From contig CP070695.1 of the NCBI GenBank assembly GCA_020353515.1, forward strand, positions 1,012,227 through 1,029,060: a stretch of DNA of 16,834 nucleotides, read 5' to 3'. Position 1 is the first letter of the stretch, and the number at the start of each line of letters is the position of its first letter. The DNA comes from Candidatus Heimdallarchaeota archaeon. GTDB taxonomy: Archaea; Asgardarchaeota; Heimdallarchaeia; Hodarchaeales; Hodarchaeaceae. Made by a program: the position numbers and the translations under genes. Below the pieces are notes generated by a model. The model saw only the letters and a program-made list of their open reading frames with translations. It was not told the DNA's origin and made no database searches. Of the stretch, positions 3,189-16,789 are shown piece after piece.

Positions 3189-4715
3189 ATGGAAATAGCT
3201 GTTATGTCTACTGATGATATAAATGATCATGAAGTTAAACAGAGGGCCATAGCTCAGAAAAAAAAGCAAACTTCTGGATTTTTTAAATCAATGACTATTT
3301 CTTGGGGGCTAATAAAATTGAGGGGGTTAATTTTCAACAAGATTTTCACTAATTATTTAGATCAGAATGAATTTGGACGATTCAATTTTTTAATACAGAC
3401 AGCAACCTTCTTAGGAAGCTTTGGAACTTCAGGATTAAGTGGCGCAATATTTCGTTTCACTTCTGTTTATACAGAGGAGAAAAATAGGAGAAAGATTAGT
3501 AATTTGATTATTACAAGCCTGATTTTAGCAACTGGTTTCTATATCATAATAACTGGAGTGTACTTAGTTCTTGTAAGCATGGAATTTTTCAGTTTCAAAA
3601 ATTTTAATACTATAGTTGTTGTACTTGTTGGGTCTTTTGGTTTTTTTTATCTTCTCCAAAACCTATCTAATGCTTATATTCAGGCACAGCGACGATTTTT
3701 ATCTTATGTTATTGTCAATGTAGCTGTAGTTTATTCAAATCTTATTATTGCTGTATTATTTGTTTTTTTTTCAGAACCAGGAGCTAATGAACTAGTTCTT
3801 TCCTATGTATTAAGTCATGGCTTTTTCATCTCAATATATTTCTTGAAAATAATATTTGATAATGGTCTTGGATCCTTTTCTAAAGAAGAATTAACCAATG
3901 TAGTTAAGTATTCAGCCCCTACTCTAATTATCTCCCCATTCTATAACTTATTCAATTATCTACAATATTTTCTTCTCACATTTTTCGCTGGAGAACAAGC
4001 AGTAGCTTTATTTGTAATTTGTCTCTCAGTTATTGGATTTCTTAATATAATTGTGAATCCCATTTCATCTGCATTTAGTAGCCTACAATACAGTTTATTC
4101 GATTCTAATGAACATGATTACTTAAAATCATTAATTAATAAAATGACTAGAGTTTATATGGCTCTTTTGGTTCCGATAATAGTTTTATTTTGGTACAACG
4201 CTCCTTTTCTTATTGAAATCCTGTCTAATTCTGAATTTGTAAATTCAGAGACTGTTTTGGGGACTTTAATTCTAGGGTTTAGTTTTCTTTTCAAAGCTTT
4301 ACTTCATTTTACTTGTCAAGGACCATATTTTTTCAAAAAGACACCTGAAATTTCTTTACTGTATCTTCGAGCTGTAATTATTGCAGGAATATCTAGTTTG
4401 ATTATTGTACCAATATTTGGTCTCCTTGGAATGTGTACTTCCTTTTTATTACATGATTTCTTCAGGTGGTTTTTCGTATTTCCCTTTTCTCAGAAAGTTT
4501 TTCGAATTAAATATTCCTTAGTTAGAATTCTCAGCATAGGTATTCCTACGATGTTTTTTTTAACTGTAAGTCTGGTGTCTGAAATTATCTTTGGTTTACC
4601 ATCACTACTTGCATCAATTTGTGGATTATTATCCTATTTAATTATTCTCTTCAGCCTAAAAATAACAGGGGTTAATGAAACAAAACAACTAATGAGACAA
4701 CTTCTCAAAAGGTAA
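3189..4715 (+). CDS. Oligosaccharide flippase (Wzx/MOP superfamily)
   Basis: 508 aa with about 12-14 hydrophobic segments, an N-terminal 'YLDQNEFGRFNFL' (L-x3-E-F/Y-G) pattern and glycan-cluster context. The start may be ATG 3204. Confidence 0.8.
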   Translation: MEIAVMSTDDINDHEVKQRAIAQKKKQTSGFFKSMTISWGLIKLRGLIFNKIFTNYLDQNEFGRFNFLIQTATFLGSFGTSGLSGAIFRFTSVYTEEKNRRKISNLIITSLILATGFYIIITGVYLVLVSMEFFSFKNFNTIVVVLVGSFGFFYLLQNLSNAYIQAQRRFLSYVIVNVAVVYSNLIIAVLFVFFSEPGANELVLSYVLSHGFFISIYFLKIIFDNGLGSFSKEELTNVVKYSAPTLIISPFYNLFNYLQYFLLTFFAGEQAVALFVICLSVIGFLNIIVNPISSAFSSLQYSLFDSNEHDYLKSLINKMTRVYMALLVPIIVLFWYNAPFLIEILSNSEFVNSETVLGTLILGFSFLFKALLHFTCQGPYFFKKTPEISLLYLRAVIIAGISSLIIVPIFGLLGMCTSFLLHDFFRWFFVFPFSQKVFRIKYSLVRILSIGIPTMFFLTVSLVSEIIFGLPSLLASICGLLSYLIILFSLKITGVNETKQLMRQLLKR

Positions 4716-4826: not shown

Positions 4827-6458
4827 TCAGGCACATAATTTGTCTATCTGATCAACCACTCTTTTAGTCGCTTTCCCATCAACTTGATAAAGATAATTTT
4901 CTATATAGCGTTCTCTATTTGCTACAAGTTCTGAATCATCATTAAGTAAGCGTTCAACAGCTGATTTTAATTTTTCCCTACTATAAACACCAATAGCTAC
5001 ACCTTCCTCAACATAATTTACAATATCAGGTTGACCGCTCAAATTTAAAATTAGTACAGGCTTATTTAATGCTATAGCTTCCATTGCAGTAGTAGAATTT
5101 TTTGTAATAAGTAAATCAGAACAATAAAGCAGTTCAAATGTATCAGCATTTTTTGGTACAAACAATGCTTCCAAGTGATATTTATTGAGGTATTCTTCTA
5201 TCATTTTCGTATACACAATCCCTTCCCCTGGATGTTGTTTGATAATCAAGAGTGTATCTTTCAATTGGTAAAAGGTTCCAAAAACTGCATCGAAATTTTT
5301 TCTATTTTCACCAAGGTCCTTTGTATAAGGTTCTAGCTGGCATTGTGTTGCCCATAATATGATTTTTTCACGAGGACTGGTCTTGAACTTTTTACCGAGT
5401 TTTTCTTTGGAATAAAGATTATTTCCATGTATAAATATATCATATCTTGGGGATCCTGTTACAACTACTTGCTTGGGCTCATAGACGCTTTTATTAACAA
5501 GAAGATCCCTGAAATAATACCCATATACACAAGTTATGTCAGGTAACAATACAGATCCTTTGTATCGTTTATTTATCATATATGCATAATGAGTTGGGTG
5601 GATAATCCCATGTTGGAGAGCAATTGTTGGGATTTTTTCCTTTTTGCCTGCATAGACAAAAGTTCGCTCAAAAAATCCATATTCATTCAGTAGCAGTACC
5701 AAATTGGGTGTCTCTTTTTCAAACAATTGCTTAGCCATTTCTATTTGCCTAATTGAACGAGGAAAGGCCCTGGAAAAATAAAATTCAAGTTCAGTTTCGA
5801 TTGCTTTGTGCAATTTCTTTTTTTCAAAAAAAGTTAATTGTTTAAAGATTTTATCTTCTTTTATGACATTCCAAACTTTTTTAAAATGCCTAGCAGCTTC
5901 TATTTCCTCCCTCCAGCTTTTTATAGACCAATATCTGTCAAATGGGAAATGACTAATATTAGATTTCAACTTCTCAATGAATACTCTTGAACTTCTAATT
6001 GGTACTCTTCCTTTAAGAGGATAAGTTCCTATTAATTCATATTGGCCTGTGATTTGGTTTATAATTGAATCAAAAAAAGCATCAGTCTTTCTTAGCTGTT
6101 TCTTCTTATAATCTTGGATATATTTCCACTGAATATCTTGATTTATGATTAATACTTTTCTGATTTCAGGTTTATTCTTAGAACTCTTTTTTCCAATCAG
6201 TTTTATGATAGTATTTATTAAAAAGACCTTTAAATAATAAAATAATAGCTCAAAAATTCTAAATAATGGTATTAAGTGTAATTGTGATCGACTGACTAAT
6301 GTTTTTTTAGTAAATATTCTTTCTAAGAAAATCTGAAAATGGTTGTCTATAAACCACCATAACGTCAAATCCTTGTATATCGTTAGTTCAAGTAAATTTT
6401 TACCGCAACTTAGTTTTGTAGTTATAAGTGTGGTAAAGAATTTATCACGATTATCCAT
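4827..6458 (-). CDS. GT-B fold surface-carbohydrate transferase (CDP-glycerol glycerophosphotransferase / UDP-GlcNAc 2-epimerase-like); candidate nonulosonate transferase
   Basis: ALQHGIIHP, PDITCVYG, VVVTGSPRYD, IIKQHPGE (HP motif), SDLLITKNSTTAMEAIALNKPVL and C-terminal DGKATKRV. Lies near a cytidylyltransferase and a flippase. Confidence 0.65.
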   Translation of the reverse strand: MDNRDKFFTTLITTKLSCGKNLLELTIYKDLTLWWFIDNHFQIFLERIFTKKTLVSRSQLHLIPLFRIFELLFYYLKVFLINTIIKLIGKKSSKNKPEIRKVLIINQDIQWKYIQDYKKKQLRKTDAFFDSIINQITGQYELIGTYPLKGRVPIRSSRVFIEKLKSNISHFPFDRYWSIKSWREEIEAARHFKKVWNVIKEDKIFKQLTFFEKKKLHKAIETELEFYFSRAFPRSIRQIEMAKQLFEKETPNLVLLLNEYGFFERTFVYAGKKEKIPTIALQHGIIHPTHYAYMINKRYKGSVLLPDITCVYGYYFRDLLVNKSVYEPKQVVVTGSPRYDIFIHGNNLYSKEKLGKKFKTSPREKIILWATQCQLEPYTKDLGENRKNFDAVFGTFYQLKDTLLIIKQHPGEGIVYTKMIEEYLNKYHLEALFVPKNADTFELLYCSDLLITKNSTTAMEAIALNKPVLILNLSGQPDIVNYVEEGVAIGVYSREKLKSAVERLLNDDSELVANRERYIENYLYQVDGKATKRVVDQIDKLCA

Positions 6459-6783: not shown

Positions 6784-7494
6784 TTACTTCAAGGATTTAG
6801 TATGGATACCACATTCCCCGCCACATTTACTAGTTCCAATCCATCTTCCTTCTCGCTCTAATCCTGTGTCATTTACAAGAGAAGTACATGGTTCACATCC
6901 TAGGCTTCTATATCCTCTGGCATAGAAAGGATGGACAGGGATTTCATTAATAGCCATATATCGCCAGATGTCCAGTTCGGTCCATTCTAAAATTGGATTG
7001 ATTTTAGTAAGTCCATTTTTCTTCTCAATTATCTTATAATCCTTCCTAGTTCTTCCTTCCGTGTTTCTCAATCCACAAATCCATGCATCAAGGTTCATAA
7101 CCGCCTGTTTAGTAGGTTCGACTTTTAATATGCGACAACATTCATCGGGATTAGTCTTCGGAAGGTTTATATCAACAGTTTCAGTAGAAATATATTCTTC
7201 AAGATTTAAATGGTATTTCGCGATCATTTCATCTTTATAATCAAAAGTTTCTTGAGGTTTGAACGGTGTCATAACTGTAAAGATCTTTATGGTGGGATCC
7301 ACTTGCAGAGCTAGATGGACAACAACCATGCTATCCTTACCAAAGCTGCATGCAACAGCTAGTTCATCACCAAACTGTTCGATAGCATCTGAAATGATTT
7401 TTTTGGCATCTTCAACCTTTTTGGGTAGAATATTGTAGATATTTTCGTCGTTCTTTAATTCATGTTCAGCTGTAATGTTGTTAGAAAGAGCCAT
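6784..7494 (-). CDS. cysH: Thioredoxin-dependent APS/PAPS reductase, [4Fe-4S]-containing type
   Basis: ACSFGKDS, PDECCRILKVEP (CC), WICGLR, KINPILEW, GYRSLGCEPCT (CxxC), EREGRW and terminal ECGIH with the catalytic Cys. Start moved from 7578 to ATG 7494 because GGAG precedes it and the longer N-terminus overlaps the promoter boxes. Confidence 0.9.
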   Translation of the reverse strand: MALSNNITAEHELKNDENIYNILPKKVEDAKKIISDAIEQFGDELAVACSFGKDSMVVVHLALQVDPTIKIFTVMTPFKPQETFDYKDEMIAKYHLNLEEYISTETVDINLPKTNPDECCRILKVEPTKQAVMNLDAWICGLRNTEGRTRKDYKIIEKKNGLTKINPILEWTELDIWRYMAINEIPVHPFYARGYRSLGCEPCTSLVNDTGLEREGRWIGTSKCGGECGIHTKSLK

Positions 7495-7562
7495 ATGATT
7501 CTTATCTCCGAGTTCTATGGATAATAATTGTAACAACCAAGAAGTCCAAACTTGCATATTAT

Positions 7563-7660
7563 TCTTAAAACTTTCCATTTATGGTTATTTACTTACCAAA
7601 TTCAGTAGTTCAATCTTTCATCTTTACCTTTTTTGGTAAGCGGTTTAGATAAATTTATAA
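7563..7660. promoter_or_regulatory. Divergent promoter with TATA-like boxes on both strands and three TTACC-N6-GGTAA-like boxes
   Basis: Plus strand: GATAAA followed by TTTATAA (7654-7660), about 35 nt before TTG 7694. Minus strand: GGAAAG followed by TTTTAAGA (7570-7563). Boxes: TTTCC-N6-GGTTA 7572-7587, TTACC-N6-AGTAG 7593-7608 and perfect TTACC-N6-GGTAA 7624-7639. Confidence 0.5.
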
Positions 7661-7693
7661 GAAAAAGATATCTACTTCAATTCAGTGGTTTGA

Positions 7694-8965
7694 TTGAAAT
7701 ATTCTCTTATTTGTCCTTCTTGTGGACAAAAATTCAGTGACAACTATCTACAAGTCTGTGATCATGACGCGGGTCTTGTTCGAACTGTATATAAGAATCA
7801 AAAATTAAGATTAAAACCAGTTAAGGGTATTTGGAAGTTTCAGGAGTGGTTACCAACTCATCACTCTTTATCCACGAATGGAGAGCTCAAGGTTTTCAAG
7901 AGTGATGGATTGAGTCGTGAATTAGGTCTTGAAAATCTTTTCTTAGCCTTCAATGGATACTATCCAGAGAGACAGGCTTCTTTAAAAACAGGAACTTTCA
8001 AAGAATTAGAAGCCCCTCCTACTATAGCCCGAGCATTAGATAAAAACATTCAAAGTCTTTGTATTGCATCTGCAGGAAACACTGCAAGGTCATTTGCTTA
8101 CTTAGCAGCATTGACAAATTTCAACATTGTTATTATTATTCCTTCAGAGGCTAAAGATCAAATATGGATTCCTACCAATCGTGATTCGACAAATGTACGT
8201 CTGATTGCATTAAATGGAAATACAGACTATTTTGATGCTATTTCATTTGCTAATAAATTCTCTACCCTCTCTAAAATTACTAATGAAGGAGGAGCACGGA
8301 ATGTTGCACGTCGAGATGGAATGGGAATCGTAATGTTAGAAGCAGCAGTCCATCTTAACCGCCTTCCTGATCATTATATACAAGCTGTTGGGAGTGGCAC
8401 AGGGGGAATTGCTGCTTATGAATCCTCATTAAGATTAGTTAAAGATGGCCGATTCGGCTCTAAACTGCCACAATTGCAATTGATTCAGAATTTGCCTTTC
8501 ACTCCTATGGTGGATGCATGGAAACAAAACAGTCGACACCTTTTTCTTGATCAAATAGACGAAAAAGAAATCATGAACAACATCGATGAGATTTCTGCAA
8601 AAGTACTCTCGAATAGACACCCTCCATATTCAATTCCTGGAGGGGTCTACGATTGTTTGAAAGCGACAAATGGTGACATGCACGGTGTTACCAATCAGGA
8701 AGCTTTTTCGGCTGGAAAACTCTTTGAAGACACAGAAGGTATTGATATAGTACCTGCTGCCGCAGTTGGAGTTGCAGGACTGATAAAACTAGCTGAAGAA
8801 GGAAAAATTGGTGCCAAAGAAATCATTTTAATGAACGTTACAGGGGGAGGTCTAAAAAGGCTTCATGAAGATTTGCCAATTCAATATATTACCCCCGAAA
8901 TAATTGGTAAAGAGCCAGAAGAAACTTATTCAGAAAATCAGGAGATTTCAGTCGTATCAACGTGA
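7694..8965 (+). CDS. Cysteate synthase (PLP-dependent, threonine-synthase-like; phosphoserine + sulfite to L-cysteate)
   Basis: N-terminal CxxC, FNGYYPER, TFKELEA (PLP Lys), ASAGNTARSFA, NEGGARNVARRDGMG, PDHYIQAVGSGTGGIA, LSNRHPPYSIPGGVYD and EGIDIVPAAAV. These motifs match cysteate synthase rather than generic ThrC. TTG start; directly upstream of comDE. Confidence 0.9.
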   Translation: MKYSLICPSCGQKFSDNYLQVCDHDAGLVRTVYKNQKLRLKPVKGIWKFQEWLPTHHSLSTNGELKVFKSDGLSRELGLENLFLAFNGYYPERQASLKTGTFKELEAPPTIARALDKNIQSLCIASAGNTARSFAYLAALTNFNIVIIIPSEAKDQIWIPTNRDSTNVRLIALNGNTDYFDAISFANKFSTLSKITNEGGARNVARRDGMGIVMLEAAVHLNRLPDHYIQAVGSGTGGIAAYESSLRLVKDGRFGSKLPQLQLIQNLPFTPMVDAWKQNSRHLFLDQIDEKEIMNNIDEISAKVLSNRHPPYSIPGGVYDCLKATNGDMHGVTNQEAFSAGKLFEDTEGIDIVPAAAVGVAGLIKLAEEGKIGAKEIILMNVTGGGLKRLHEDLPIQYITPEIIGKEPEETYSENQEISVVST

Positions 8966-9040
8966 TCAAACTCTTCTTTACCGCATTATTCGATACGATT
9001 TAATACAGATCATATCATTACTATCCTCGGGTGAAGTGTC

Positions 9041-10186
9041 TTGGCGTTTGAACAAATGTTTATTACAACTTTACGGCGCGCAGGAGTCGATGTTGTTCTA
9101 ACAAATCCGTGTGCCAGAATTAAGGAAGTTTTAAAGCTTCTAGAACAGGAATCAGCTTTTGATGTTATTCAATTACCCCGAGAAGATCTAGGGATTGGAA
9201 TAGCTGGAGGCGCTTTTTTAGCAGGAAAGAAACCTATTCTCCTTATTCAAAGCACTGGATTAGGGAATTTATTGAATTCTTTAGCTTCCTTAACATTAAC
9301 TTACCAATTCCCTCTTCCAATTTTCTGTAGCTGGCGTGGAGTGATAGATGAACCTATTGAAGCACAGAAACGTTTTGGTGGAGCAATAATTGGCATTTTT
9401 AAAGCAGTAAATGTTTCTGTTCATCTTATCAAGAATCAGGACGAAATTTCAATAATAGAAGAAAAGTTAAAAGGTTCATACAAAGAAAAGAGTGTTCATT
9501 TATTCCTTCTTTCTCCAAGACTTTGGACAGAAGGATTGATTGTAAAGCACACCATTAAACCGCGAAAATCTACCATTTCTGGAGAAATTAAATTCGATAA
9601 GTCATCATCCTCACCCTTTCTCACACGATACCAGACAATCCAGGAAATTACTAAGCAAATTTCTAATGATGTGGCTCTTATTTCAAATATTGGATTTCCT
9701 TCAAAAGAACTCTACAACATTAAGGATAGGCCAGGGAATTTCTATATGACAGGGAGTTTTGGACAAGTATCAGCTATTGGACTTGGAATATCACGATATA
9801 CGTCGAAACAAGTTATAGTGCTTGATGGTGATGGTTCAATCTTAATGAATCTATCAATCCTTCCCATGGTGGCTTACTATGGAACAAAAAATCTGACAAT
9901 AATATGTCTCGATAATGGTACATATGGTTCGACTGGTGATCAACCAACTTTAACCTGGGCTGGAGTTAATCTTGAAGTTGTTGCTAATAGTTTTGGTATG
10001 ACAAAGACTTGTACCGTCTATTCTGAAAAAGAGATAAAGAAAGCATTGAGGGAGAGAAATAAATATCAATTTATCCTTATTAAAATCAAACCTGGTAATG
10101 CAAAAGTAGGTTCTATCCAAATTGCCAACCAAGAGATAGGTCGTCGTTTTTCAAATTGGTTATTAGGTAAGATTTCAACTAACTAA
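9041..10186 (+). CDS. comDE: Sulfopyruvate decarboxylase, fused alpha/beta (ComD-ComE), ThDP-dependent
   Basis: ComD part: PC, REDLGIGIAGGAFLAG, LIQSTGLGN, SWRG, EPIEAQ. ComE part: TRYQTIQ, SNIGFPSKELY, DRPGNFYMTGSFG and the ThDP motif GDGSILMN...LDNGTYGSTGDQPT. TTG start with GGTGA upstream. Confidence 0.9.
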   Translation: MAFEQMFITTLRRAGVDVVLTNPCARIKEVLKLLEQESAFDVIQLPREDLGIGIAGGAFLAGKKPILLIQSTGLGNLLNSLASLTLTYQFPLPIFCSWRGVIDEPIEAQKRFGGAIIGIFKAVNVSVHLIKNQDEISIIEEKLKGSYKEKSVHLFLLSPRLWTEGLIVKHTIKPRKSTISGEIKFDKSSSSPFLTRYQTIQEITKQISNDVALISNIGFPSKELYNIKDRPGNFYMTGSFGQVSAIGLGISRYTSKQVIVLDGDGSILMNLSILPMVAYYGTKNLTIICLDNGTYGSTGDQPTLTWAGVNLEVVANSFGMTKTCTVYSEKEIKKALRERNKYQFILIKIKPGNAKVGSIQIANQEIGRRFSNWLLGKISTN

Positions 10187-10204
10187 AAAGAAAGGACAGC
10201 CTGA

Positions 10205-10762
10205 CTATTCACTGATTTTTGCGATTGCTTCAACAAGTGCTTTCTGCAATTGATCACGGCTAAAATGTAACCCAATAACTGGTATACGAACAACGCGATT
10301 AAGTGTATTTGCAGCAATTGGTCCACAAATCAGGGCAACGCATCCATCGTTTTCTGCTCGGATTCCCTGAATAATTTCTTCCTCAATGGTTGCTGCAGGA
10401 TATTCCGCCACCATAAAAGAACGATCTCCTATAGAGATAATTGGTTCAATTTCTTGCAAGGCATATCTTGCTGTAATTATACCTACAGCTGGTGTTTCAT
10501 GAGGACGAATCTCTAATTTTTTTAATGTTGTAACGATATTCTCTAACGTTGATACTCGTATATCAAAAGCTTTTACTGAAGAAATCTTATATAAAGTTCC
10601 TTCTGGGATGTTTGCTTCTTTTGCAAACTCCTTTAATGTCAAATTAAAGTGATCTATTGCCTCTTTTATCAACTTATCTTGAGTATTAGGAGATAAAATA
10701 AAGTTGATAAGAAATTCTTCCCAATAAGGTCGCGAACCAAGCTGTCGTTCCACCAGAATCAT
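10205..10762 (-). CDS. XRE-type HTH transcriptional regulator with C-terminal ligand-binding domain (MJ1545/COG4800-like)
   Basis: HTH segment LTLKEFAKEANIPEGTLYKISS...DIRVSTLENIV. The C-terminal VGIITAR, EYPAATIEEEII..IRAENDG..ALICGPI..TL..VVRIPV pattern resembles, from memory, the archaeal MJ1545-like family. Confidence 0.75.
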   Translation of the reverse strand: MILVERQLGSRPYWEEFLINFILSPNTQDKLIKEAIDHFNLTLKEFAKEANIPEGTLYKISSVKAFDIRVSTLENIVTTLKKLEIRPHETPAVGIITARYALQEIEPIISIGDRSFMVAEYPAATIEEEIIQGIRAENDGCVALICGPIAANTLNRVVRIPVIGLHFSRDQLQKALVEAIAKISE

Positions 10763-10810: not shown

Positions 10811-11725
10811 TTAATCATTTATCTGTTTAGGTTTTACAGGTGTTAGAGCATTTTTTAATTTTCTTGATGTGATTACTAATTGGTATTTGAATAGAAATTT
10901 TCGTGTCTTTTTTTGACGTCGAGAAAGATTAAACTGTGATCCACGGGAGAAAAAACCCGCGATGAGGCGTACAGCAGATCTAATACCATACTTTTGGCTT
11001 ATAATGAACCGAAATCCTCTTAAAATGACAATAATTGGATTGTAACCCATCGCACGCATTCCCCGCCCCCAATCATAGAAATCTACTGTTCCCTGCCCTT
11101 TACGAGAGACATGAAATTTAATAGCTGAGAAACTTCGGACTTCAAGACCTACTCTTAAACATTCAATCTGACATTGTGATTCCCATCCATAGGAGACTGG
11201 ATATCTTTCCCCATACCATTTCCAAAAGCGTACATCAAAGATCCTTCCTGACCCCCGAGCGTGATCAGGATTCATTGGTGCGTGAGGGGGATGACCCGAG
11301 GCTATGGCTAATCTTGGATTCTTCTTAAATTCTATTAGTAATTTCTCAATATAAGTTGGTTCTAATTGAGTGTCAGCTCCAATCACCAATATATAATCAT
11401 AATATTCTTTACACGCCTTCTCAAATCCTTTGTTAAAAGTTTCAGCAATTTTTGGTTTTCCTACTAGGCTCTCACCGCCTATCCTCTCAGGACGCTCTAC
11501 AATTCCCAGTTGAAACCTTATAGGCTTGAATTTCCTGAGTAGTGCCACTGTGTTGTCTTTAGAGCCATCGTCAACTACAACAACATACGAAGGTGGATGT
11601 GTTTGTCTATCTAATGATTTTAAAGTTGCTAGAATGTGTTCTTCTTCATTTCGGGCTGGAATCACCACATTAACAATTTTTCTTGACTTTTCTTTCACTG
11701 ATTGATTGATATTCACCTTTTTCAT
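10811..11725 (-). CDS. Glycosyltransferase family 2
   Basis: VVIPARNEEEHI, VVVVDDGSKDNT, ILVIGADT and YGWES. Start probably ATG 11725; the ORF track extends to 11848 through AT-rich, promoter-like DNA. Confidence 0.85.
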   Translation of the reverse strand: MKKVNINQSVKEKSRKIVNVVIPARNEEEHILATLKSLDRQTHPPSYVVVVDDGSKDNTVALLRKFKPIRFQLGIVERPERIGGESLVGKPKIAETFNKGFEKACKEYYDYILVIGADTQLEPTYIEKLLIEFKKNPRLAIASGHPPHAPMNPDHARGSGRIFDVRFWKWYGERYPVSYGWESQCQIECLRVGLEVRSFSAIKFHVSRKGQGTVDFYDWGRGMRAMGYNPIIVILRGFRFIISQKYGIRSAVRLIAGFFSRGSQFNLSRRQKKTRKFLFKYQLVITSRKLKNALTPVKPKQIND

Positions 11726-11896
11726 TAATGAAACCCTATAAAGACTATTCGAATGCTTGTACAAAGGATTACAACGAAAAATGTTATTAAAGCTTAGGAA
11801 AGCATATCTTAATGTATTTATTGTTAATATGATCTTCCTTAACACCAATATTCCACTAAATATGATTACTTAGGAAACTGGTGGTTTTCTTACATA

Positions 11897-12973
11897 TTGA
11901 AAGTCTTAGCTCTTAGGGTTCTAGCGTGGGATGTTACAGCCCGACTTCCCCAACGAATTGATTTTATTAAAGGTAGAATCTCTAAATCTGTTGATTACTC
12001 AGAAATTTATATTTCACCGATTCATACCTTTGGATATTACTTAGGATATATTATAAGCTTTATATTAACTATTCCACGACTTTTAAGAAGAAATTATGAT
12101 ATACTTCTGATAGAAAATGCTTACTTGGTTGTTTTCGGAATAATTTCACGACTCTCTGGGAAAAAAGTAATTGCAGAATATGTGGATTATTATCCAGATA
12201 TGCTTCATCGAATTTATCATACAAGAAAATTTCGGTATTTTGTGGCATTCATGCTTTGTAGCATGTTTTCAAAACTAGCAAATTTCGTGATTGTTGAAAC
12301 ACAATTAAGTAAACAAATCGTTATCTCTCTTGGAATTCCCTCCAAAAAAATACGCGTGATAAGTCAATCTCCAGACTTATCAGTAATAAAACGTCAAGAT
12401 AGGCACGAAATTCGTCGAAAATATGGTATCACGGATGATGAGTTTGTAATCGGATATCTAGGAAAATTTCCTGATCATTATGGGTTGGAACTCATTCCTG
12501 CAGCTACTGCAAGTGCTCAAAAACAGACAAAAAGAAACCTAGTTCTACTTATGGTGGGTGATGGAGAATTTCTATCTAAAATCGAGGAAATGACAAACGA
12601 GAATGGTTATAGAGCTATTTTTCCAGGGAGGGTTCCTTTTCAGGAGGTTTCCAAATATTATTCTTCTTTTGATGTTCTCATCTATACACCAAATACAGCC
12701 TCTGGAATTAAATTAGCTGAAGCCCTTGTATTAGGAGTTCCTGTCATCGTTGGAGCTGGTTATGCCACTGAATTTATAAAAGATGGATATAATGGTTTTG
12801 TTGCTGAACCACGAGCAGTTGAAGCGTATGCTAAAAAAATAATAGAAGTTGAAAGTCGGACAGAAGAAGACCTACAAAATCTATCTGAAAGGATAAGACA
12901 CTATGCACATAAGCGTTTTGTGCTTTCTCATAACCAATATCTTATCATGTTTAACGAAGTAATCAAGAATTAA
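11897..12973 (+). CDS. Glycosyltransferase family 4
   Basis: FVIGYLGK, LLMVGDG, FPGRVPFQEV, FDVLIY, KLAEALVLGVPVI and IKDGYNGF. TTG start. The 3' end overlaps the convergent gene by 11 nt. Confidence 0.85.
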   Translation: MKVLALRVLAWDVTARLPQRIDFIKGRISKSVDYSEIYISPIHTFGYYLGYIISFILTIPRLLRRNYDILLIENAYLVVFGIISRLSGKKVIAEYVDYYPDMLHRIYHTRKFRYFVAFMLCSMFSKLANFVIVETQLSKQIVISLGIPSKKIRVISQSPDLSVIKRQDRHEIRRKYGITDDEFVIGYLGKFPDHYGLELIPAATASAQKQTKRNLVLLMVGDGEFLSKIEEMTNENGYRAIFPGRVPFQEVSKYYSSFDVLIYTPNTASGIKLAEALVLGVPVIVGAGYATEFIKDGYNGFVAEPRAVEAYAKKIIEVESRTEEDLQNLSERIRHYAHKRFVLSHNQYLIMFNEVIKN

Positions 12974-13976
12974 ACTTCATCTTGGACTGTTCTGACACAT
13001 TTTTTCCTAATCTTTGTGTGATCAATAGGAGGAAAATTAGTCCCAAGGTGACACCAAACCACAGAGTGGTCATTCGTATCAGAATCACCAGAGCTCCAGC
13101 CGTTGACAGACTAATAACTAAAAGGTTCACTAAAAATAACTCCATACTTCCCTCCATTACTCCCAATCCACCAGGTAGGAATGATACAGCTCCAAGTAGA
13201 GAGGAGGTTGCATAAATAAAAATCGAAGTTTCAAATGTAATAGAAATTCCTAAACTTTGAGCTAATAAGAAAAAACCTATACCCTCACATGTCCACCCTA
13301 TGATTCCTAATAATAAAGCTCCGAGAAACACATCGTAATGAAAAGTGACTACAACATCTGATCGAAATTTATCTATTTTCTTTCCAACTCCAAACCAAGG
13401 CTTTAAGTGGAAAATCCAACTGAAAATATTGTATAATGGATCGAATAAAAAGATTAGAACTCCAAGGAGAATACCAAGGAGAATTATTACAAGAATTGGT
13501 AAGAAATCAACTGATTGTCGAAACTCTAAGACGAAAACTCCTAATAGTGCTAGGATAGTCACCGCTAACAAGTCAATTAATCGTTCTGAAAATGTTGATG
13601 CAAGGCCTTTTGAGAGTTCAACAGAGCTTGTTTTTTGAAGAAAAAATGCCCTAATAGCTTCACCAACTTTTGCGGGAGTTATTGAAAGACTTAGACCAGC
13701 GAAAAATATCAGAAAGTTATCTTTGAATGGGATGTTAAGTTCTAGACTCCGTGTAAATAGAAGCCATTTAAAAAATCGACAGAAATAATTTCCCAAACTC
13801 AGAAACACAGCTAGCATAACCACTAGCGGATCAACATTGAATATTTGTTTAATCAGATCCTCCCAATCACCAAATATCATTATGAGAAGGTAAACAAATA
13901 TTGCTAGTATTATGGCAAAAATGAAAGAACGAAAACTTAAAACTTGGGATAATGTTTCCTGTTTTGATGTCTCCAT
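12963..13976 (-). CDS. UPF0104 / lysylphosphatidylglycerol-synthase TM domain protein (putative glycolipid flippase)
   Basis: RFFKW, ITPAKVGEAIRAFFL, ERLIDL, SFLPGGLGVMEG and LIRMTTLWF; multi-TM. Start probably ATG 13976 (track gives 14018). Confidence 0.85.
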   Translation of the reverse strand: METSKQETLSQVLSFRSFIFAIILAIFVYLLIMIFGDWEDLIKQIFNVDPLVVMLAVFLSLGNYFCRFFKWLLFTRSLELNIPFKDNFLIFFAGLSLSITPAKVGEAIRAFFLQKTSSVELSKGLASTFSERLIDLLAVTILALLGVFVLEFRQSVDFLPILVIILLGILLGVLIFLFDPLYNIFSWIFHLKPWFGVGKKIDKFRSDVVVTFHYDVFLGALLLGIIGWTCEGIGFFLLAQSLGISITFETSIFIYATSSLLGAVSFLPGGLGVMEGSMELFLVNLLVISLSTAGALVILIRMTTLWFGVTLGLIFLLLITQRLGKNVSEQSKMKFNS

Positions 13977-14019
13977 GGAAAAAACCAAGAATTTACCTGA
14001 AGATATGTGTTTATACAAG

Positions 14020-15072
14020 TTAAAAGACTAATAAATGGTTTAAATTAGGATCTTTTGAGAGTTTCTCTGTTATCCGCTTTATTTCACGGGCGTTCTTTTT
14101 ATGACAAACAAATACACAATCTTCAGTATTAACAACAACAATGTCTGAAATCCCAAGCGCAATAACTGGTTTCTCTCCAAAGAAAACGTTATTTTTGACA
14201 TCCAGGCCTAAAAAGTCCCCCTGTATTACGTTTCCATCGGAGTCGGATTCTAAAATGCGATCTAGAGAATCCCAAGTACCTATATCATCCCAATGGAAAT
14301 CCCCTTTAACTACCACTAGATCAGAGGTCTTCTCCATAACTCCATAATCAATAGATACTTTAGGGAGGGGATTGAAAGCATTAAGGGCTTCTGTTTCATC
14401 AAACGCAGTGGTTTTTATTTTTTCAAGAGCTTGATATAAAGAAGGCATGTACTGCCGGATATTACTATATAAAATCGAAGGTTTGACAATAAACATACCA
14501 GAATTCCATAGATATCCAAGGTCAATATAATTTTGTGCCTGAGCCTCATTGGGTTTTTCTGTGAAACTCTCAACCTCAAATGTAGGAATTAAAATCTTTT
14601 CAATTCTCTTTCCTGGATTAATATATCCAAAACGTGTCTCAATACGACTCGGTTTTATTCCAATTGTAGCAATTTTTCCCTTTTCGGCCAGTTTAATGGC
14701 GGTTGCTAAAACCTCTTTAAAATGATTAATGTCTGGAATATGATAATCTGCTCCCATAAAAAGTGTAACTTCATCATTTTCCTCGTGAAGGAAGTGAGCA
14801 CATACAAATCCCATTCCAGCAGCAGAATCTCGGCCAATTGGTTCTACAACCATTTTAACTTGAGGTAGCTGCTTTTGGATAATGGATTTTATTTCTTTTC
14901 TAGTTGATACAACAATTTTCTCTTCTCCAACAATTTCGCTAGCAATTTCAAATATTCGTTGAATCAAAGACAGTTTTCCATCAAGAGAGATAAATTGTTT
15001 GGGTAGGTTAATGCGGGATATAGGCCATAAACGTTCACCTCCTCCACCAGCTAAGATAACGATGAAAACCAT
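14020..15072 (-). CDS. manC: Mannose-1-phosphate guanylyltransferase (no PMI domain)
   Basis: VILAGGGGERLWPISR..PKQF, EPIGRDSA, ADYHI, ETRFGYI, FTEKP, YLWNSGMF, SIDYGVMEK and WDDIGTW. ATG 15072 is preceded by GAGG (track gives 15114). Confidence 0.9.
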   Translation of the reverse strand: MVFIVILAGGGGERLWPISRINLPKQFISLDGKLSLIQRIFEIASEIVGEEKIVVSTRKEIKSIIQKQLPQVKMVVEPIGRDSAAGMGFVCAHFLHEENDEVTLFMGADYHIPDINHFKEVLATAIKLAEKGKIATIGIKPSRIETRFGYINPGKRIEKILIPTFEVESFTEKPNEAQAQNYIDLGYLWNSGMFIVKPSILYSNIRQYMPSLYQALEKIKTTAFDETEALNAFNPLPKVSIDYGVMEKTSDLVVVKGDFHWDDIGTWDSLDRILESDSDGNVIQGDFLGLDVKNNVFFGEKPVIALGISDIVVVNTEDCVFVCHKKNAREIKRITEKLSKDPNLNHLLVF

Positions 15073-15165
15073 TAGTATTGCCTCAATCATCGAGAATGAA
15101 TAAGCATTTGTCAATGGATATTATTAGGTTATCAAGGCATTCATGTGATAAATCTTCATCGTTCT

Positions 15166-15640: not shown

Positions 15641-16789
15641 TTAGCACAAAAGGTCGTAAAGTGTCCCACGTTCGCATGCAATCCTTTGTAACTCCTGGAT
15701 ACTTGATTGAAATGTTTTAGGGGTAGTAAATTGTCCGAATGACCCTCCTGCTGATCGAGTTATATTTTCCTCAAATAAAGTTCCTCCAAAATCGTTACAA
15801 CCAGTTGTTAGTGTAATTTCAGCCAATGGAAAACCTAATTTCACCCAAGACGTTTGAATATTTTTGAAAGCCTCTCCTAAATATAATCGGGAAACCGCAT
15901 AAAACTTTACATAGTCTAAACTGGTTAATTTGTAGATATGAGAGGAGAACTTCCTTTTCAGTTGAGTATTTTCTGCTATAAACGGAAGCGGAATAAATTC
16001 CGTAAAGCCTCGCGTTTTTTCTTGGATCTTTCGTAGAAGTGAGAGATGATGTATCCAATGAAGATGATTTTCGATATGACCGAATAGAATGGTTGCTGTT
16101 GTTGGAATCCTTAATTGATGACATAGTTCAATAATATGAATCCAATCAGCACTGCTTATTTTTTGGGGGCAGATTCTTTTGCGAATGTTATCATCAAGAA
16201 TCTCGGCAGCCGTTCCAGGTATAGAGTCTAATCCATTTCGTTTGAATTCCCGCAAAACATCTTCAACATCTTCTTCTAGGGAACTAGCTGCATGTGTAAT
16301 CTCTTGAGGGGAAAATGCATGAATGTGAAGGGTAGGATCGATTTCTTTGAGATTCTGAAGGATTTCAAGATAGGTTTCAAAGGTTATTTTTGGATGGATT
16401 CCTCCCTGAACACAGACCTCTGTAATCTGATAAGGCTGTGTTTCCTCGATCTTTTTCCGTAGAGTATCAAATGATACATCAAAATACCCTTTTTCAGAAT
16501 TAGGGGAAACAGAGTACGCACAAAATAGACAGTTATTGGTACAGACATTAGTAAAGTTAATGTTACGATTTACAACATATGTGATAACTGATCCTGTCTG
16601 ACGTTCCCTAATTATGTCAGCTACTTGCCCTAATAGAGGAATTTCGCGCCCCTGAGCCGTAAATAGAGTCTTTAAATCTTCACTTGTTGGCCATTGGTCG
16701 TTTAATGCCCGTTTAAGGATATGTCGAAGCTCCTTCTTGGCTACACGAAGGTCAATCTCCTCCAGCTCAGTTTGATGCACCGTTTTCAA
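15641..16789 (-). CDS. cofH: FO synthase subunit CofH (radical SAM; coenzyme F420 biosynthesis)
   Basis: YVVNRNINFTNVCTNNCLFCAY (CxxxCxxC), EVCVQGGIHP, HIHAFSPQEI, PGTAAEILDD, GFTEFIPLPF, NIQTSWVKLG and NDFGGTLFEENITRSAG. This pattern favours CofH over MqnC/MqnE. TTG start. Confidence 0.88.
   Translation of the reverse strand: MKTVHQTELEEIDLRVAKKELRHILKRALNDQWPTSEDLKTLFTAQGREIPLLGQVADIIRERQTGSVITYVVNRNINFTNVCTNNCLFCAYSVSPNSEKGYFDVSFDTLRKKIEETQPYQITEVCVQGGIHPKITFETYLEILQNLKEIDPTLHIHAFSPQEITHAASSLEEDVEDVLREFKRNGLDSIPGTAAEILDDNIRKRICPQKISSADWIHIIELCHQLRIPTTATILFGHIENHLHWIHHLSLLRKIQEKTRGFTEFIPLPFIAENTQLKRKFSSHIYKLTSLDYVKFYAVSRLYLGEAFKNIQTSWVKLGFPLAEITLTTGCNDFGGTLFEENITRSAGGSFGQFTTPKTFQSSIQELQRIACERGTLYDLLC

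Follow-up and report, generated by a model that had tools for sequence, protein, structure and literature searches.

A cassette of linked genes for a predicted APS reductase, cysteate synthase and sulfopyruvate decarboxylase in surface-glycan loci of Asgard archaea without methyl-coenzyme M reductase

The window analysed here is a 16.8-kb stretch of DNA (contig CP070695.1, positions 1,012,227 to 1,029,060) from the metagenome-assembled genome (MAG) of a Candidatus Heimdallarchaeota archaeon. It carries cysH, encoding a predicted adenosine 5'-phosphosulfate (APS) reductase, and, divergent from it, cs and comDE, encoding cysteate synthase (CS) and a predicted fused sulfopyruvate decarboxylase (Table 1). 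In our reading, the glycan locus around it, which depends on Wzx, is conserved, and the cassette is an optional addition to it that varies between strains. The enzymology of the cassette taken alone can be predicted with rather high confidence, and we lean towards the reading that the block is a sulfate-to-sulfonate supply cassette feeding a cell-surface glycan pathway. The enzymes themselves are known; what is new is that cysH, cs and comDE are physically coupled, with ComF absent, inside glycan loci of Asgard archaea that lack methyl-coenzyme M reductase (MCR).

The initial annotation, made from the sequence, had placed four genes here, namely cysH, cs, a fused comDE and a helix-turn-helix (HTH) gene, and all four were confirmed. 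It had also considered the case of an MCR-less archaeal host, possibly Asgard. The MAGs with the closest homologues bear the names Promethearchaeota, Hodarchaeota, Hodarchaeales, Heimdallarchaeota and Gerdarchaeota, and mcrA was found neither in the host MAG nor in any of the 83 genomes of its class, while the positive controls gave a signal. Hence, to the extent that MAGs can tell, the host is an MCR-less Asgard archaeon, of Hodarchaeales type by the source names of these homologues and by kinship among the genomes analysed.

Identity of the cassette enzymes

By its sequence, CysH is of the iron-sulfur (Fe-S) APS-reductase type, with APS rather than 3'-phospho-APS (PAPS) as its predicted substrate. 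Its cysteine motifs (the CC...CxxC ligands and ECGIH) align with those of the solved structures 7lhr and 2goy, and its best solved relatives are the APS reductases of Mycobacterium tuberculosis and Pseudomonas aeruginosa. The motifs lie at residues 146-147 (ECC), 228-231 (CEPC) and 255-259 (ECGIH) of a 264-aa open reading frame, whose start is probably Met29 at position 7494, which gives 236 aa, the length of its relatives. On two other models the protein scored below the cut-offs (TIGR02055 APS_reductase, 140.6 vs 235.3; TIGR00434, borderline at 163.7 vs 165.1). The CysH clade found in the window is frequent in MAGs of the Heimdall group, where it occurs away from cs as well.

The second enzyme appears to be a true cysteate synthase, with predicted catalysis. 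Its best solved relative is 'Cysteate synthase' (PDB 9k3c, 332 bits), while solved threonine synthases reach at most 69 bits. The lysine that binds pyridoxal phosphate (PLP), K103 in the motif SFKELE, is invariant across 18 sequences, and the protein shares ~50% identity with its counterparts in Methanoperedens, Methanocella and Methanosarcina. ComDE, in turn, is predicted to be a decarboxylase of the sulfopyruvate type. It contains the thiamine pyrophosphate motif GDG-x25-LDNG, scores 212.3 bits on the beta-subunit model (cut-off 221.5), and is 43% identical to ComDE from Asgard clusters in which cs and comDE are accompanied by methanogenesis marker 16 (MMP16/ComF). The identities given earlier to the three proteins (cysteate synthase, ComDE-type decarboxylase and Fe-S APS-reductase-type CysH) thus hold at the level of sequence.

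Conservation of the cysH-cs linkage

We surveyed 400 Asgard genomes and scanned metagenomes, examining the neighbours of the best 80 of 569 metagenomic cs loci. The cs gene is patchy: it is present in 17 of the 400 genomes, in 7 of 83 in the class and in 4 of 22 in the genus. Labels are used below where genomes or contigs must be told apart. G000 is the MAG of the window, and G050, G053, G054 and G066 belong to the same genus; L155 denotes G050:C4:1-20000. A group of seven genomes from another family, including G105, is called g24. L032 and L033 are metagenome contigs, L034 is from Hodarchaeota, G075/L156 from Gerdarchaeota and L158 from Heimdallarchaeota (WJIK01000022.1).

In G066, cysH, cs and comDE are co-directional, share 82-87% identity with the window, and are followed by the same downstream genes. 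A co-directional triad also occurs in the seven g24 genomes, and in L034 cysH and cs overlap. In L032 and L033, cysH is divergent and shares only 33% identity with that of the window, even though their CS and ComDE are 68% identical; here the cysH paralogue has been replaced. G075/L156 and L158 have cysH-cs without comDE. Wherever a relative has comDE it comes after cs, as it does in the window. A phylogenetic tree of CS divides the sequences linked to cysH among three or more groups with good support, on an unresolved backbone. In metagenomic cs loci at large the link is rare: among the best 80 of the 569 metagenomic loci, 22 had comDE and MMP16, 19 had comDE, 37 had neither, and a single one had cysH within 5 kb. 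The adjacency of cysH is therefore kept across Asgard relatives and rare elsewhere, and its persistence despite changed orientation and a changed paralogue argues for function.

In one g24 genome (G105:C14, L050:8041-11113), cysH, cs and comDE are each broken into two or three frames, which reflects either a decaying cassette or poor assembly. In two genomes of the host genus, G053 (L013:9347-10591) and G054 (L014), the cysteate synthase is another one (46% identity, 514-522 bits), encoded beside a chemoreceptor-like gene, with neither cysH nor comDE inside 10 kb. On the 47-kb contig that bears cs in G053, a CysH of the window type (P0147, 71% identical) is encoded farther off.

The region between the divergent cysH and cs genes of the window has a TATA-like element, TTTATAAG, ~30 nt before cs. 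This element is overlapped by a short palindrome, GAAAAAGATATCTACTTC, at 7661-7678, which could be an operator or a chance occurrence. The corresponding intergenic regions of G000 and L032/L033 failed to align. The inverted cysH of the window is flanked by weak inverted repeats only.

Assembly and environmental occurrence

The window is AT-rich (29-39% GC), nearly all coding, and represents one complete contig of its MAG. The host record (4.94 Mb; 96% complete, 7% contaminated) contains 112 runs of exactly 100 N, which implies ~113 joined contigs; two of these runs, at 1012127-1012226 and 1029061-1029160 of the record, bound the window. This rules out that the record is a closed genome, and for that reason absences from the MAG are provisional. 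Binning of the window is backed by two further genomes of the genus, which have syntenic contigs. The rRNA models RF01959 and RF00177 gave no match in the host MAG.

Public sequencing runs provide further support for the gene order. In two sediment runs, one of which is possibly the source sample, contigs read through from cysH into the divergent cs, and a 3-kb contig covers cs, comDE and the HTH gene. The Logan contigs are short and their depth is low; across the junction between cysH and the neighbouring GT-B transferase gene, none was found except in the probable source run. All public runs that hold the cassette are sediment metagenomes, and no RNA run was listed among the holders.

Source and fate of the sulfite

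According to the initial annotation, the sulfite from CysH serves C-S bond formation rather than cysteine synthesis. Our results agree with this: a NIR_SIR sulfite reductase was found in none of 16 Asgard genomes with cs, of which the host MAG is one, and therefore the sulfite would go into C-S bonds instead of sulfide. The description of the block as self-contained, in contrast, does not stand. Neither ATP sulfurylase (Sat) nor APS kinase was found in the 96%-complete MAG, and CysD was likewise not found there. Moreover, the aminotransferase that would convert cysteate to sulfopyruvate is not part of the block, which is usual in methanogens too. Sat is present in G066, G075, G105 and G127; in the host MAG it may have fallen into an assembly gap or may truly have been lost.

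In G066 (L058:1003-3563), G127 (L059) and G105 (L061), the ATP sulfurylase gene is followed by an overlapping conserved gene of ~470 aa without a solved relative, which may be the sulfate transporter of these archaea. The host MAG has only a 31%-identical paralogue of this gene.

A second sulfite-to-sulfonate cassette is located on another contig of the MAG (G000:C1:1196757-1202293; L030:8757-14294). Here, a cysH paralogue (275 aa, 33% identical, with the same Fe-S motifs) is convergent with genes for a ComA-like phosphosulfolactate synthase (250.7 bits vs 280), an XcbC-like lyase (493 vs 575), an ATP-grasp protein and a class I/II aminotransferase. The same block occurs in G065. Its ATP-grasp protein is 51% identical to an ATP-grasp protein of g24, and orthologues elsewhere lie beside PIG-L and GT4 genes.

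The surface-glycan setting

The surroundings of the cassette in the window are a surface-glycan locus. It was correct that the neighbourhood does not resemble a coenzyme M (CoM) locus, and its glycan nature, which is the best clue to the product, had been missed. Upstream and downstream lie genes for glycosyltransferases, a Wzx-type flippase and sugar-activating enzymes (Table 1). The GT-B protein has a 30%-identical homologue beside the cassette in the unrelated genome G099. Searches of the PDB with the sequences of the ATP-grasp protein, the GT-B protein and the product of the Sat-adjacent gene gave no useful match.

The HTH gene reads as part of this glycan locus rather than of the cassette. 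It is convergent with comDE (gap of 18 bp), and we assign it to the glycosyltransferase unit because it lies only 48 bp behind the GT2 gene on the same strand. Its neighbours in the protein atlas are archaeal HTH_3 regulators of equal size (score 0.95). Homologues were found only in G066 (88% identity) and G050 (65%), each time beside GT2. Since the gene is kept only in the nearest relatives and adjoins the same GT2 in G050, which has no cassette, the proposal that the cassette has its own regulator was dropped.

A comparison within the genus shows the site without the cassette. G050 (L155) lacks cysH, cs and comDE, and shares with the window a block of HTH (65%), GT2, flippase-like protein, ManC, response regulator and CofH genes. 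At the site where G066 carries the cassette, an SsuA-like ABC transporter abuts the HTH gene of G050, and beyond it lie genes for a nucleoside diphosphate (NDP)-sugar dehydrogenase, PIG-L, ATP-grasp, Wzx (atlas score 0.99) and GT4 proteins. In G066, the opposite flank of the cassette consists of an SsuA-like ABC transporter, an ATP-grasp ligase, GT1 and GT4. The substrate-binding protein of the neighbouring ABC transporter scores 93 bits on SsuA, which is below the cut-off, and matches OpuAC and taurine binders weakly.

Similar surroundings were found in lineages farther away. In g24, which has no other synteny in common with the window, cysH-cs-comDE is followed by a GT4 gene on the same strand, and divergent from these are Lrp, ATP-grasp, PIG-L deacetylase and second ATP-grasp genes. 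The vicinity further contains NeuB, a cytidylyltransferase, a PseB-like protein, Wzx, WecB, an amidotransferase resembling asparagine synthase and a 30%-identical homologue of the GT-B protein of the window. In L158 (5770-11955), cysH and a gene for a 430-aa PALP protein, probably cs, are inserted between the substrate-binding and permease genes of an SsuA-like ABC operon, and this operon is flanked by GT2/GT4 and by PIG-L and two ATP-grasp genes. Genes for a putative uronic-acid-forming dehydrogenase, a putative amide ligase and Wzx/glycosyltransferase machinery are linked across G050, G066, g24 and L158; of these genes, the window has those for Wzx and the glycosyltransferases only.

Past ManC, the window ends with a response regulator gene and cofH (15641-16789). 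Together with cofG and cofC in G066 (L062:18017-20980), genes for F420 (FO) synthesis directly flank the glycan locus of this MCR-less genus.

Table 1. Annotated features of the window (positions counted from its first nucleotide; scores in bits against the model cut-off where two values are given).
Feature	Positions	Strand	Evidence or remarks
N-acetyl sugar amidotransferase (WbuX family), truncated by contig end	2-988	minus	TIGR03573, 318 bits vs 203
Methyltransferase, pseudaminic-acid-associated family	1110-1751	minus	TIGR03587, 189 bits vs 112
CMP-sugar-type cytidylyltransferase	2116-2964	plus	CTP_transf_3
Wzx-type oligosaccharide flippase	3189-4715	plus	Polysacc_synt
GT-B surface-carbohydrate transferase (BFO_1060 / TIGR04396 type)	4827-6458	minus	Same strand as cysH and downstream of it
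cysH, predicted Fe-S thioredoxin-type APS reductase	6784-7578	minus	PAPS_reduct, E 8e-44; NF002537, 203 bits vs 154
Divergent cysH-cs intergenic region, 199 bp	7495-7693		TATA-like element and palindrome, putative function
cs, predicted cysteate synthase (O-phosphoserine + sulfite -> L-cysteate)	7694-8965	plus	TIGR03844, 532.2 bits vs 324.9
comDE, predicted fused alpha and beta subunits (sulfopyruvate -> sulfoacetaldehyde + CO2)	9041-10186	plus	Alpha model, 158.4 bits vs 147.95
XRE-type HTH protein, 185 aa, C-terminal domain of unknown function	10205-10762	minus	HTH_26/HTH_3, E ~0.01, below Pfam threshold
GT2 glycosyltransferase	10811-11848	minus	Syntenic in G066 and G050
GT4 glycosyltransferase	11897-12973	plus	BshA model, 61 bits, far below cut-off
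Membrane protein with flippase-like domain (LPG_synthase_TM / TIGR00374)	12963-14018	minus	Syntenic in G066 and G050
Mannose-1-phosphate guanylyltransferase, ManC-like	14020-15114	minus	

Proposed pathway and alternative explanations

In the pathway that we propose, CysH would reduce APS to sulfite, and CS would join this sulfite with O-phosphoserine to form L-cysteate. An aminotransferase encoded elsewhere would convert cysteate to sulfopyruvate, from which ComDE would produce sulfoacetaldehyde. Presumably, sulfoacetaldehyde is then transaminated to taurine, in which case one aminotransferase could couple both transamination steps. An ATP-grasp amide ligase would plausibly link the sulfonate to a uronic acid or a de-N-acetylated amino sugar of a glycan exported by Wzx. 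In relatives without comDE, cysteate itself would be the product that is attached, and those relatives that have just the SsuA-like ABC transporter at this site may import a sulfonate.

Several observations weigh against a role in glycan decoration, for which the argument comes from gene neighbourhood only. The window has no ATP-grasp, PIG-L or aminotransferase genes, and the PIG-L, ATP-grasp and dehydrogenase genes of the MAG sit on other contigs. In L032/L033, the triad is located beside ZIP, MoeA and peptidase genes and away from any glycosyltransferase gene, and the G075/L156 pair lies beside AhcY, with a sugar dehydrogenase only at 3 kb, behind housekeeping genes. Glycan islands gather accessory genes, and the co-location could partly be hitch-hiking. 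ATP sulfurylase was not found in the MAG with TIGR00339, PF01747 or tblastn with the Sat of G066. The score of ComDE on the beta model is slightly below the curated cut-off, the backbone of the CS tree provides no resolution, and at 96% completeness and 7% contamination presences as well as absences in the MAG are provisional. The loci of L032/L033 and of the Gerdarchaeota type, without nearby glycosyltransferases, would also fit a product other than those considered here in a coincidental neighbourhood, and this takes the small probability that the named explanations leave.

An alternative explanation might be that a free small sulfonate (taurine, isethionate or cysteate) is a compatible solute in marine sediment, made by the cassette or imported through the SsuA/OpuAC-like transporter, with the glycan genes as mere neighbours. 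Synthesis and uptake genes are adjacent, which is typical of osmolytes; the binding protein resembles SsuA (at 93 bits, below the cut-off) and weakly OpuAC and taurine binders; and the cassette is optional in the genus, with sediment metagenomes as its only holders. Yet, PIG-L, ATP-grasp, GT4 and Wzx genes accompany the cassette again and again, in lineages without other shared synteny, the GT4 of g24 follows comDE on the same strand at a place where there is no transporter, and neither a reductase nor an aminotransferase gene is linked to the cassette. We therefore consider a free solute rather unlikely. The CoM reading of the initial annotation fares no better, and CoM is probably not the product of the cassette. 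In the host MAG, the search for MMP16/ComF yielded only ferredoxin-domain fragments (at most 31 bits), and MMP16 was not found in 13 cs-bearing, MCR-less genomes other than the host MAG; of the genomes with cysH-linked cs, 11 in number, none has it. By contrast, G122 and G127, which bear alkyl-coenzyme M reductase (ACR) or MCR, and also G398 have cs-comDE with MMP16 and without an adjacent cysH. Because ComF/MMP16 and MCR are absent, the pathway appears to stop short of CoM. It is unlikely that CoM or a close sulfonate thiol is made through a last step independent of ComF/MMP16 and used by non-MCR enzymes, for instance methyltransferases or in redox buffering. Such a product would be in line with the orthology of cs and comDE to the type II CoM genes, with the ComA-like and XcbC-like genes of the second cassette, which correspond to the first two steps of bacterial CoM synthesis (PMC9457059), and with a weakly MtaA-like gene ~6 kb from that cassette. 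However, MMP16 accompanies cs-comDE in the Asgard genomes that bear ACR and was not found in the 11 cysH-linked genomes, none of the 83 genomes of the class has a detected mcrA, homologues of XcbD, XcbE and XcbA were not seen beside the ComA/XcbC-like genes, and the cassette is embedded in Wzx/glycosyltransferase loci. In addition, the patchy distribution of cs (4 of 22 genomes in the genus) is unlike that of a core cofactor. The wider idea that Heimdall-group Asgards, close archaeal relatives of eukaryotes, make a CoM-like or new sulfonate cofactor or thiol from sulfate, by means of two CysH-coupled cassettes and a ComF-independent finish, for use outside methane and alkane metabolism, seems to us very unlikely.

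It is highly improbable that ordinary metabolism has been misread, that is, that the genes represent assimilatory sulfate reduction to cysteine, a threonine-synthase-like enzyme, and a phosphonopyruvate decarboxylase (Ppd) for a phosphonate glycan. Phosphonate-decorated glycan loci are similar in layout, and among solved structures the closest to ComDE are putative Ppd subunits; ComDE does reach 198 bits on the Ppd model. This score is nevertheless far below the Ppd cut-off of 312.5, and no true phosphoenolpyruvate (PEP) mutase was found in the MAG, whose sole PEP-mutase-like gene reaches 120.7 bits (cut-off 319.55); on these two grounds the Ppd reading was rejected. Furthermore, the cysteate synthase model gives 532 bits for CS, against 81 at best for the threonine synthase models, and no sulfite reductase was found. 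A soluble thiol resembling bacillithiol or mycothiol, which the combination of GT4, PIG-L and ligase genes could suggest, was also rejected: the BshA model gives 61 bits for the GT4 of the window, and the BshB1 model 53-60 for the PIG-L proteins, far below the cut-offs. A lipid-linked, exported glycan is preferred to a soluble thiol because of the linked Wzx flippases.

Relation to known systems

In Methanosarcina, the genes for cysteate synthase, ComDE and MMP16/ComF are presumably MA3297, MA3298 and MA3299, respectively. The type II (phosphoserine) pathway of CoM synthesis to which they belong is attributed to Methanosarcinales, Methanomicrobiales and anaerobic methanotrophic archaea (ANME) where PMC6286981 cites Graham et al. 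(2009). The Asgard cassette has the same order, cs and then fused comDE, the same predicted chemistry through sulfoacetaldehyde, and a CS that is ~50% identical. It differs in that MMP16/ComF and MCR are lacking, a dedicated cysH is present, and the cassette is patchy and placed in a glycan locus. CysH itself is comparable to the Fe-S enzymes of assimilatory reduction (M. tuberculosis, P. aeruginosa and Bacillus subtilis type) in its PAPS_reduct fold, the motifs CC...CxxC and ECG[IL]H, and its predicted product sulfite. In the Asgard archaea, however, this sulfite would be consumed by a PLP enzyme, with no sulfite reductase downstream, and Sat is found in relatives but not in the MAG. For ANME, it has been suggested that APS/PAPS reductases may supply the sulfonate group of CoM (PMC6286981), and the Asgard case differs in that the genes are physically linked.

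The second cassette shares with the bacterial CoM pathway XcbA-E of Xanthobacter (PMC9457059) a ComA/XcbB-like synthase and an XcbC-like lyase. In contrast to that pathway, its proteins score below the cut-offs, ATP-grasp and aminotransferase genes follow instead of XcbD, XcbE and XcbA, and a cysH paralogue precedes them.

A chemical precedent for the proposed decoration is provided by the type 1 capsule of Staphylococcus aureus strain M, in which taurine is amide-linked to N-acetylgalactosaminuronic acid (PMC12043029). Both cases would combine a uronic acid with a sulfonate amine, and the related Asgard loci hold an NDP-sugar dehydrogenase, ATP-grasp, Wzx and glycosyltransferases. The Asgard case is an analogy at the level of genes, with a putative ligase and acceptor, and it differs in that CoM-type enzymes would build the sulfonate de novo, starting from sulfate. 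Other surface glycans whose uronic acids are amidated with amino acids or amines offer a similar comparison.

Glycan loci for 2-aminoethylphosphonate contain PEP mutase, phosphonopyruvate decarboxylase and a 2-aminoethylphosphonate transaminase. Their logic resembles that of our proposal, in which a thiamine pyrophosphate decarboxylase homologous to theirs would, within a glycan cluster, produce a C2 aldehyde, to be joined to the glycan after transamination. In the Asgard cassette, sulfur would replace phosphorus, PEP mutase is lacking, and the C-S bond would be formed by cysteate synthase from sulfite.

In a full-text literature search, no paper turned up that connects Asgard archaea with either cysteate synthase or sulfopyruvate decarboxylase. 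Our results bear on the interpretation of metagenomes, where CoM genes are often taken as a sign of methane or alkane metabolism; in these lineages without MCR the setting of cs and comDE points to another product, and CoM should not be deduced from these two genes by themselves. They also bear on the source of sulfite for cysteate synthase and ComA in anaerobes, a question of CoM synthesis raised for ANME (PMC6286981), to which the repeated wiring of APS-reductase genes to both kinds of sulfite-using enzymes, in genomes where no sulfite reductase was found, offers a testable answer. If the cassette does serve surface-glycan decoration, this would be the first time that a route to a sulfonated (C-S bonded) glycan is suggested for archaea, and the surface of Asgard cells, about whose envelopes very little is known, would have a trait that varies from strain to strain.

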